From the NCBI GenBank assembly GCA_964601045.1, contig CAZRLF010000003.1:80210-144209 (forward strand): a stretch of 64,000 nucleotides of DNA, in the 5' to 3' direction. Positions 40,077 to 41,657 of the stretch are shown in pieces (position 1 is the first letter of the stretch; each line of letters starts with the position of its first letter). Made by a program: the position numbers and the translations under genes. The notes beneath the pieces are model-generated. The model was not told where the DNA came from and made no database searches. It saw nothing but the letters and a program-made list of their open reading frames with translations. Source of the DNA: an uncultured Bacteriovoracaceae bacterium. GTDB lineage: Bacteria > Bdellovibrionota > UBA2394.

Positions 40077-40574
40077 TTACTGACAAGCTAAGCAGCGAAA
40101 ATCAAATTGGTGATAGTAGCCAGCAGCCCTAGTGCCCTGACAGAACTGGTTCTTTACCTGAAAGGTTTCTTCGCTCATCCCTTGAAGAGCAGGAAGCCCC
40201 ATCACTGCATTTCGCCTAGAGCATTCAAGACGAGCTGAATTCTGAGCCAGATAGAAGAAATCTTCAGACTCCGCATAACGTCCAGTGATATTCCAAGCAC
40301 TCCGTAAGCCTTGATCGGTATAAGACGCGATAATTGATGCATCAGTAGTTAAAGCTAAATTAGCCCGTACAGTCTCAATAGAGTTACAATCTGCAACATC
40401 CTGCGTAGGAATTTGCTTTGAGCGGTAAGTTCCTTGATAGATATACGCACATTTTCTTACAGGTGACGGACTTGCGTATTGAGCCTGCACTTGCGCAATA
40501 TCGAAAAATCCAAGGTTCACAAAAACCAGAGCCGCCATAATAATTTTTCTATTCTTCTGATTCATTATTCCCAC
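40077..40574 (-). CDS. Small secreted cysteine-rich protein, paralog 1 of 3
   Basis: Signal peptide. Conserved 8-Cys framework C..DC..C-R-x-x-NA..C..Y-x-H-x-[FY]-x-x-x-C-x-x-C shared with 40582-41109 and 41127-41657. Confidence 0.55.
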   Translation of the reverse strand: MGIMNQKNRKIIMAALVFVNLGFFDIAQVQAQYASPSPVRKCAYIYQGTYRSKQIPTQDVADCNSIETVRANLALTTDASIIASYTDQGLRSAWNITGRYAESEDFFYLAQNSARLECSRRNAVMGLPALQGMSEETFQVKNQFCQGTRAAGYYHQFDFRCLACQ

Positions 40575-40581
40575 CCCCCAA

Positions 40582-41109
40582 TTACGGGATAATAAAATTA
40601 CATTGCATACAACGATAATGAAAGTGATGTTGATACTGATTAGCCGCGGGACCTTTTTGACAGTATGATTTTTTCACAAAAAATGCCGTCTCATCCACTT
40701 GGTCCTCTTTATCGGTAAAAGTTAAAAAAGCATTTTTTTGTCGGCAGATTCTCTCAGCACTTTTCTTAGCCTGAAAATAAAAACCCGTTTTAATATAATT
40801 GCGATCTAAGATTCGCGTCGCAATATTAAATAAAGTCGTGGCTGCATTGCTGGCAGCGGATTCATCTGTCGATGTCGCCCAAATGTTACGCACGGGGTCA
40901 AGCTCGTTACAGTCAGATAAATTTGTACCAGCAAGCACAGGCGACTTGATAATGCCTTTATAAGAAATCGAACAAGAATTTAAAATCTGGGGCTCTCCCA
41001 CAACCATATTGGGATTCCAAACTGGAGGCGCTGCTGGATTCGGCGTTGGAGCAGCAACGATCTTTGTAGAAAAAATAAGACCTAATAAAAATATTCCGTA
41101 CTTGATCAT
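40582..41109 (-). CDS. Small secreted cysteine-rich protein, paralog 2 of 3
   Basis: Signal peptide MIKYGIFLLGLIFSTKIVAA. ICRQKNAFLTF and YQHHFHYRCMQCN align with the paralogs. Confidence 0.55.
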   Translation of the reverse strand: MIKYGIFLLGLIFSTKIVAAPTPNPAAPPVWNPNMVVGEPQILNSCSISYKGIIKSPVLAGTNLSDCNELDPVRNIWATSTDESAASNAATTLFNIATRILDRNYIKTGFYFQAKKSAERICRQKNAFLTFTDKEDQVDETAFFVKKSYCQKGPAANQYQHHFHYRCMQCNFIIP

Positions 41110-41126
41110 TCTCTCTCCCCTATACC

Positions 41127-41657
41127 TTAAGGAACCAAACTACAGCTCATGCAAGTAATCGCATAATTATGATAATACTTCTTAACCGGCGTCGTGCTTG
41201 CAACTTGGCAGAGCCCACGTCTAGCTAGATAGGTCAACATATTCGGATCACTTCCTAAATTAGTTGGGACCGGAAAAGCATTGCGTGCACGACACTGAAG
41301 CTCAGCTGCACGAGAAGCATCGTAAGCAAAACCTCCGTCCCGACTTAAATAATCGTTAAAAAGTTTTTGAATTACTTCGGCGACTGCATTCACATCATTG
41401 AGATTGCCTTGGTTTGATGTTCGTAGTGCATCAAGGCGATGACAGTCTTGAACTTCATCTTCGTTAGCCAGTACATCAGATTTAATTGGATTAATATTAA
41501 ACTCAGTACAATTTGAAAGTCGAAGTGGCGGCGCAATAACCGCAGGCGGAGGCGTAGGCCCTGGCGACGATTTTAGTGCGGCGTAAAGAGGACCAAGAAC
41601 AAAACTAAAACTTAAAACTGAGATCAGCGAAACTCGAATTGTAAATTGATTAAACAT
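41127..41657 (-). CDS. Small secreted cysteine-rich protein, paralog 3 of 3
   Basis: Signal peptide. QCRARNAFPVP and YYHNYAITCMSCS align with the paralogs. Pro-rich linker after the signal peptide. Confidence 0.55.
   Translation of the reverse strand: MFNQFTIRVSLISVLSFSFVLGPLYAALKSSPGPTPPPAVIAPPLRLSNCTEFNINPIKSDVLANEDEVQDCHRLDALRTSNQGNLNDVNAVAEVIQKLFNDYLSRDGGFAYDASRAAELQCRARNAFPVPTNLGSDPNMLTYLARRGLCQVASTTPVKKYYHNYAITCMSCSLVP

Follow-up and report, generated by a model that had tools for sequence, protein, structure and literature searches.

A rare family of predicted exported six-cysteine proteins, encoded in tandem next to a proline-rich partner, in a Bacteriovoracaceae bacterium

A 64,000-nucleotide stretch of DNA from an uncultured Bacteriovoracaceae bacterium (assembly GCA_964601045.1, contig CAZRLF010000003.1, positions 80,210 to 144,209), referred to below as the window, carries three consecutive minus-strand genes for small cysteine-rich proteins, here called paralogs A, B and C. 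Searches of public protein and metagenome sequences revealed that they belong to a genuine, very rare and unannotated protein family, which is best treated as new and unnamed. Its members share an invariant six-cysteine framework, and their genes are accompanied in every locus by a gene for a small proline-rich protein. Our preferred, if tentative, reading is that the family comprises exported, three-disulfide proteins that work with the proline-rich partner outside the cytoplasm, as binding or inhibitory heads.

The three genes follow one another head to tail in the order C, B, A, with intergenic gaps of 17 nucleotides (nt) between C and B and 16 nt between B and A. Paralog C (41127..41657, minus strand) encodes 176 amino acids (aa), with a signal peptide at approximately residues 1-26 (…LYA/AL), a proline-rich linker, SSPGPTPPPAVIAPP, between the signal peptide and the six-cysteine domain, and cysteines at positions 50, 72, 122, 150, 169 and 172. 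Paralog B (40582..41109, minus strand) encodes 175 aa and is laid out in the same way, with a signal peptide at approximately residues 1-19 (…IVA/AP), the proline-rich linker APTPNPAAPPVWNPN, and cysteines at positions 46, 67, 122, 150, 167 and 170. Paralog A (40077..40565, minus strand) encodes 162 aa from ATG 40565, or 165 aa (40574-40077) if translation starts at GTG 40574; its signal peptide spans approximately residues 1-28 (…VQA/QY), and its cysteines are at positions 39, 60, 115, 142, 158 and 161. Strong, G-rich Shine-Dalgarno stretches end 1-4 nt before each ATG: GGGGGCGG at 41668-41661 for C, GGGGAGAGAG at 41120-41111 for B, and GGGGGGTGGG at 40579-40570 for A, 4 nt ahead of ATG 40565. 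This ATG is the more likely start of paralog A, because it is the better fit to the Shine-Dalgarno stretch and the public annotation, P0003, agrees in giving the 162-aa form. With that adjustment, the three consecutive open reading frames (ORFs) of 165, 175 and 176 aa reported by a first-pass annotation of the window were confirmed, and the signal peptide it assigned to each protein was borne out by reading of the sequences. Each N-terminus has a charged n-region, a hydrophobic core and a small-residue -3/-1 site (VQA/Q, IVA/A, LYA/A), no lipobox is present in any of the three signal peptides, and A, B and C accordingly read as typical Sec-type substrates of signal peptidase I. No convincing intrinsic terminator hairpin was found after gene A (folding z-score 0.27).

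BLASTP comparison gave 29% identity between A and B (E-value 2e-18), 28% between B and C (7e-17) and 24% between A and C (2e-7), and alignment with MAFFT placed every cysteine of the three proteins in register, column for column. The spacing is C-x20/21-C-x49/54-C-x26/27-C-x15/18-C-x2-C, and cysteine makes up 3.4-3.7% of A, B and C, versus 0.84% of the window's proteins. The first-pass annotation had described an "8-cysteine" family and had named the computed alignment of the cysteines as the check on its proposal. The cysteine positions do line up, but each paralog has exactly six, as does the pattern that the annotation itself wrote down. That motif is correct and reads C..DC..C-x-[RK]-x-N-A..C-Q..Y-x-H-x-[FY]-x3-C-x2-C in the computed alignment. 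Its broader view of a tandem, diversified family of small exported cysteine-rich proteins is supported by the degree of identity and the cysteine register, and sequence comparison indicates that A, B and C are true homologs, similar beyond chance, and ancient tandem duplicates. A DNA-repeat search of the region detected no DNA-level repeat between the three genes; the duplications are therefore old.

HMMER was used to compare a profile built from the three mature domains with every one of the 1.84 billion representative sequences (50% identity) that stand for approximately 15 billion proteins. Besides A, B and C, this exhaustive search returned only two credible matches, P0004 (252 aa, E-value 1.6e-8) and P0005 (182 aa, E-value 9e-6). 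A third match, P0006 (E-value 5.6e-4), was rejected as a Kelch-like repeat protein with a low-complexity 'DCDEYD..GNSW' match. P0008 (191 aa) and P0009 (196 aa, E-value 5e-28) came from word-indexed searches in which the alignment was enlarged step by step, and a 263-aa ortholog of P0004 was found by reading the metagenomic locus L008. The homolog search that the first-pass annotation had proposed therefore yielded five further members, bringing the family to eight proteins (A, B, C, P0004, P0005, P0008, P0009 and the 263-aa protein) in four loci. The window holds three copies, and two related peat-metagenome loci, on scaffolds L003 and L008 (62% GC), hold two tandem paralogs each; the fourth locus, L002, is an unplaced 1-kb contig with a single copy (54% GC). 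The peat loci are probably of Myxococcota origin, because a neighbour of P0004 in L003 matches an MXAN_6577-like cysteine-rich family (213 bits).

When the family profile was run against six-frame ORFs of the window, L002 and L003, all members tested scored 146-182 bits, and nothing else fell below an E-value of 1. No match for A, B or C was found in Pfam (zero families at E ≤ 0.1), NCBIfam, PADLOC or PHROGs, and scans of A, B, C and all their neighbours against these collections gave nothing usable. Searching PDB sequences with the family profile turned up nothing better than a spurious match at an E-value of 0.4. No relatives came to light when paralog B was used to scan GTDB genome contigs, IMG/VR viral contigs, plasmids and phages, or in two scans of JGI metagenome contigs, one with profile A5 and one with P0004.

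Alignment of the eight sequences, which come from three distant lineages (GC contents 41%, 54% and 62%), revealed that six cysteines, one arginine (R67 in A) and one histidine (H152 in A) are invariant. The residue after the fourth cysteine (Q143 in A) is Gln in six of the eight members and Arg in the other two, while a Tyr or Phe two residues before the invariant His (Y150 in A) and a Ser in the first strand are each conserved in seven. No Asp or Glu is invariant. The resulting signature is C-x20-24-C-x6-R … C … C-[QR]-x6-9-[YF]-x-H-x5-C-x2-C, and we define the family by the combination, found here, of a signal peptide, this signature, and an upstream gene for a small proline-rich exported protein. 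Between the orthologs of L003 and L008, the proportion of non-synonymous differences (pN) was lower than that of synonymous differences (pS) for all cassette genes, with the synonymous rate (dS) saturated. Ratios of non-synonymous to synonymous rates (dN/dS) of approximately 0.06, 0.28 and 0.38 were obtained for the short six-cysteine gene, the long one and the proline-rich gene, respectively. The excess of pS over pN demonstrates that these genes are under purifying selection and are not chance ORFs.

The gene directly upstream of the six-cysteine gene or genes encodes a small proline-rich protein in all four loci, representing three lineages. In the window, this gene (41670..42008, minus strand) encodes a 112-aa predicted exported protein from ATG 42008, consisting of a signal peptide, a segment in which proline reaches 40% over the best 30 residues, and a C-terminal part of approximately 50 aa with two cysteines, ending in GSIGWDL; its stop codon lies 12 nt ahead of the start of gene C. 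Across the four loci, the distance from the partner to the six-cysteine gene ranges from an overlap to 12 nt, and the proline content of the partner is 40-47% in its best 30-aa segment, versus an average of 4.0% for the window proteome. The N-terminus of the partner is on the contig in the window, L003 and L008, and in these three it is a signal peptide or a membrane anchor. Each partner ends in a glycine-rich stretch with cysteine (…GSIGWDL, …KSIGGWITGN, …KSIFGR and …GGGIGFKF). The link among the proline-rich partners is positional and architectural.

To model the fold, AlphaFold2 was run on A and B with a 5-sequence alignment. The model of A (predicted local distance difference test score, pLDDT, 66; predicted template modelling score, pTM, 0.48) has the topology β-α-α-α-β-loop-β, and that of B (pLDDT 74, pTM 0.62, with all five models at 71-74) has the same topology with an added short α4 in the loop, giving a combined predicted topology of β1-α1-α2-α3-β2-(α4)-β3. 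In the models, Cys1 starts β1, Cys2 lies in α1, Cys3 is at the end of α3, Cys4 follows α4, and Cys5 and Cys6 are in β3; H152 is predicted to lie in a β-strand. This arrangement would most likely allow three disulfides, pairing β1 with β3, α1 with α3, and the loop after α4 with β3. No known inhibitor, toxin or ligand family was matched by sequence or by the predicted fold, results that neither favour nor refute the suggestion of the first-pass annotation that the proteins act as protease or lysozyme inhibitors, toxins or ligands.

In the mechanism that we favour, genes C, B and A would be co-transcribed with the upstream proline-rich gene. After signal-peptide cleavage, the mature proteins of approximately 130-155 residues would fold outside the cytoplasm into a compact α/β domain, locked by three disulfides between the six invariant cysteines. 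Since the pairing of the proline-rich and six-cysteine genes is kept in every locus of the family, a two-part extracytoplasmic module appears the most likely mechanism. The proline-rich protein may serve as an extended tether or docking arm, and the diversified six-cysteine domains as ligand-binding or inhibitory heads, with the tandem copies providing diversified specificities. The invariant Arg and His could form the functional site together with two near-invariant positions, Gln and Tyr/Phe, next to the C-terminal C-x2-C; this site might accommodate an anionic ligand.

Several points weigh against this reading. Export, the disulfides and a complex with the partner are inferred, as is the role of binder or inhibitor, whether in the envelope or in the prey-facing secretome of a Bacteriovoracaceae-type predator. 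The structural models are of moderate confidence and were built from only five sequences, and the disulfide pairing is read from the predicted topology alone. Homology among the proline-rich partners could not be demonstrated with BLAST or hidden Markov models (best hmmsearch E-value 0.055, driven by the proline-rich segment), and the synteny argument rests on three lineages, because two of the four known loci are closely related. Finally, the invariant His, six residues before C-x2-C, could equally mark a metal or catalytic site.

A more ambitious version of the proposal appears decidedly unlikely. It holds that a two-component extracellular module with a new disulfide-locked fold has been shared horizontally by predatory Bacteriovoracaceae and Myxococcota-like lineages and is used at the predator-prey interface, for example in recognition of the prey envelope or in neutralising prey defence, with the copies differing in specificity. 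If the proteins function as we propose, they would represent a new exported fold and family with a fixed partner, and a compact, expressible target of approximately 15 kDa for structural and predation-biology work. The family is seemingly confined to a few genomes, one from Bacteriovoracaceae, two probably from Myxococcota and one unplaced. The present evidence adds one orphan secreted family to a genome region that already abounds in such proteins, as do genomes of this lineage, and the main present value of the family lies in the eight-member definition, the signature motif and the conserved partner gene, which can seed profile searches.

Other explanations were weighed against the same evidence. 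The proteins might be periplasmic or secreted inhibitors or immunity proteins, directed against enzymes or toxins among the neighbouring large proteins or against lysozymes and proteases of the prey or of the cell itself, with diversification tracking the targets. Small, exported, cysteine-rich proteins in tandem diversified copies fit such a role, as does the density of genes for large signal-peptide proteins in the window region, among them two pairs of paralogs whose C-termini vary, and the L003 cassette follows a 1,268-aa secreted protein. We nevertheless consider this unlikely: no large secreted protein adjoins the cassette in L008, the large neighbours in the window and L003 are unrelated to each other, the sole conserved neighbour is a small proline-rich protein and not an enzyme, and searches of Pfam, NCBIfam, PADLOC and PDB gave no match to any known family of inhibitors or immunity proteins. 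Small secreted enzymes or toxins, in which the Arg, His, Gln and Tyr/Phe would form a catalytic site acting, for instance, on phosphate-bearing lipids, nucleic acids or cell-wall precursors of the prey, are distinctly unlikely. The host belongs to a predatory lineage, and R67 and H152 are invariant, with Q143 and Y/F150 near-invariant, across three lineages. However, these residues are joined by no invariant acidic residue, the R-x4-6-H motif of HEPN domains occurs in paralog A only, no toxin-domain profile was matched, and a set of three copies at 24-29% identity fits binders better than a single enzyme.

The C-terminal H-x5-C-x2-C, invariant in all eight members, also raises the question of redox-active or metal-binding periplasmic proteins, in which this motif, with or without Cys142, would serve as a copper or zinc site or in thiol-disulfide exchange. 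A gene for a DsbD-TM/thioredoxin fusion lies approximately 4.5 kb upstream of the cassette in L003, but it is absent from L008 and from the window. An even number of invariant cysteines in an exported protein most simply means three disulfides, the models place the C-x2-C within the last β-strand, whereas thioredoxin-fold oxidoreductases have it at a helix N-terminus, and there is neither a C-x2-C-H haem motif nor a Pfam match to thioredoxin, HMA or cupredoxin domains, all of which make a redox or metal function very unlikely. A structural role is highly improbable. In this case, the proline-rich and six-cysteine proteins would not be specific binders but glycosylated or cross-linked material from which the envelope or extracellular matrix is built, in line with the Pro/Thr/Ser-rich linkers of the partner, B and C, and with a multi-pass TPR membrane protein, bearing a putative GT-C/TMTC-type motif, beside the cassette in both peat loci. 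The 64-kb window contains no such TPR protein, Pfam and NCBIfam match only its TPR part, so that the glycosyltransferase label is a motif reading, and the extreme rarity of the family would be unusual for a core structural element. As for spurious ORFs or decaying pseudogenes, the genes are unannotated and the family is absent from nearly all genomes, but each of the three ORFs is intact and has a Shine-Dalgarno stretch and a signal peptide, and the region recurs at 99.97% identity in a contig from an independent sequencing run (SRR15237806). Homology, pN < pS between orthologs, and eight residues invariant across three distant lineages effectively refute this possibility.

The proteins were also compared with known families. 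HEPN domains are all-α, cytoplasmic and without disulfides, unlike the six-cysteine family, which is predicted to be exported and to have three β-strands and has six invariant cysteines. The motif gave no support for an assignment to HEPN, as R-x(4-6)-H is present only in A (R-x5-H, TRAAGYYH), the Arg being missing in B, C, P0004, P0005, P0008 and P0009; in a fold comparison, the scores were such as generic helical hairpins also give. An obvious analogy for a membrane-active secreted protein is offered by the saposin-like proteins (SAPLIP: saposins, NK-lysin, amoebapores), small secreted proteins that are mostly helical and have six conserved cysteines in three disulfides. However, the six-cysteine family has a different spacing, C-x20-C … C-x2-C with the latter at the C-terminus, and its domain is approximately 50 residues larger, with a predicted three-stranded sheet. 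Membership was rejected, since A, B and C gave no match to SapB_1 or SapB_2 (Pfam, E ≤ 0.1) and do not show the saposin six-cysteine spacing.

Periplasmic lysozyme inhibitors and immunity proteins are small, Sec-exported and sometimes disulfide-bonded, and are often encoded beside genes for secreted enzymes. The six-cysteine proteins resemble Ivy, MliC/PliC, PliI, PliG and periplasmic immunity proteins in small size and predicted Sec export, but match them neither in sequence nor in fold, and their conserved neighbour is a proline-rich protein in place of an enzyme or toxin. This is the class suggested by the first-pass annotation. As family assignments, the known lysozyme and protease inhibitors (Ivy, MliC/PliC, PliI/PliG, ecotin and others) were rejected on the basis of zero Pfam or NCBIfam matches and no PDB match below an E-value of 0.4. 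Thioredoxin-fold oxidoreductases (DsbA/DsbC/TlpA) were rejected given the lack of a Pfam match and the position of C-x2-C in the last predicted β-strand; 1-5 residues separate this motif from the C-terminus in A, B and C. An assignment to c-type cytochromes was rejected too, as the position after C-x2-C holds Q, N, S, P or T in the 8-sequence alignment and never the H of the C-x2-C-H haem-attachment motif. In the hit locus of Bdellovibrio, Bd0108 and Bd0109 provide a precedent for a small exported, largely disordered protein acting with an adjacent exported partner in the envelope. By analogy, the window may encode a comparable predator-encoded pair of a proline-rich and a folded partner, although the architectures differ. 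Toxins of the lipocone/Min-Wnt group have been described in Bacteriovorax among others, and lipocone, Min-Wnt and prok-SAA domains have a four-helix core with conserved polar active-site positions, of which those in H4 and at the H3 end include acidic residues (PMC12419801). The six-cysteine family was not assigned to this group, as no match to Wnt, SAA or DUF2279 was found in Pfam (E ≤ 0.1) and no Asp or Glu is invariant.

The first-pass annotation had placed the proline-rich gene, a lipoprotein gene and a gene for a large secreted protein downstream of the three paralogs; because the locus is on the minus strand, they lie upstream in the direction of transcription. Its suggestion that all of these form one secreted-factor locus held for the proline-rich protein, but not for the other two, which are not conserved partners. 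The lipoprotein gene (42120..42374, minus strand), 111 nt upstream of the proline-rich gene, encodes 84 aa with a lipobox (…FVS/C) and a single coiled coil. This protein is Lpp-like or spanin-like, with weak matches only (phrog_812 Rz-like spanin, E-value 2e-4). It has no counterpart at L003 or L008, its adjacency is the sole link to the cassette, and it probably does not belong to the module. The large secreted protein (42419..45490, minus strand) comprises 1,023 aa from ATG, or 1,029 aa from TTG 45508, and has a W/D/Y-rich C-terminal tail; no match was found in Pfam, NCBIfam or PDB. Upstream of the L003 cassette, a 1,268-aa RCC1/Calx-beta secreted protein is encoded at 5638-9444 (plus strand). 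The two large proteins were tested for homology and none was found. Both have aromatic/acidic tails, ending …DDWIDWFDW in the window and …VWDYYPGSPASYLGDWYH in L003, a resemblance that could be coincidental or could reflect a common signal for docking or export. On the other side of the paralogs, a gene for a 304-aa predicted exported protein follows A after a gap of 164 nt.

P0004 (L003, 10001-10759) has a C-terminal module of approximately 60 aa (residues ~195-250, ending …FYRA/FYQA) that recurs in the adjacent RCC1/Calx-beta protein at residues 189-245, with 40% identity and an E-value of 4e-7. No Pfam model covers this module, and its presence in a secreted RCC1 protein fits an extracellular, modular role. 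The TPR membrane protein lies at 11394-13196 (plus strand) in L003 and 6954-8666 (minus strand) in L008, staying beside the cassette despite rearrangement and different orientations. The two copies are 45% identical and have C-terminal TPRs and an N-terminal F-x-YDD, a putative and unverified GT-C/TMTC-like motif.

The housekeeping genes of the window include those for PhoX, phosphoenolpyruvate carboxykinase (PEPCK), MetRS, CinA, PgpA and peptidases; no tRNA gene and no Rfam match was found in it. The gene content points to a Bacteriovoracaceae-like host, of the predatory Bdellovibrio-and-like group, because the PEPCK is 77% identical to that of a Bacteriovoracaceae metagenome-assembled genome, and the GC content of approximately 40% and the many signal-peptide proteins without recognisable domains fit this placement. 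The independent contig (Logan contig L001) covers window positions 40402-43930 with one substitution in 3,529 nt, which changes Asp66 of paralog B, the residue before Cys2, to Ala.

Four large signal-peptide proteins are encoded on the minus strand at 28884-31541 (885 aa), 33242-36148 (968 aa), 36148-38820 (890 aa) and 52872-55322 (816 aa). They form the two paralogous pairs, with 41% (E-value 2e-107) and 53% (E-value 8e-157) identity over the N-terminal 460-480 aa and divergent C-terminal halves. A four-way alignment retains GGT…DxD, a putative nucleotidyltransferase-like motif, and H-x-T…S…G..G…Y; none of the four matched Pfam, NCBIfam or PDB. A 228-aa protein encoded at 27372-28058 (plus strand) contains 10 cysteines (4.4%), but is unrelated to the six-cysteine profile and matched nothing in Pfam. 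At 45718-50955 (plus strand), in divergent orientation to the 1,023-aa gene, lies the gene for a 1,745-aa adhesin-like protein with fn3, Big_13, Ca2+-stabilised tandem repeat and choice-of-anchor D domains.

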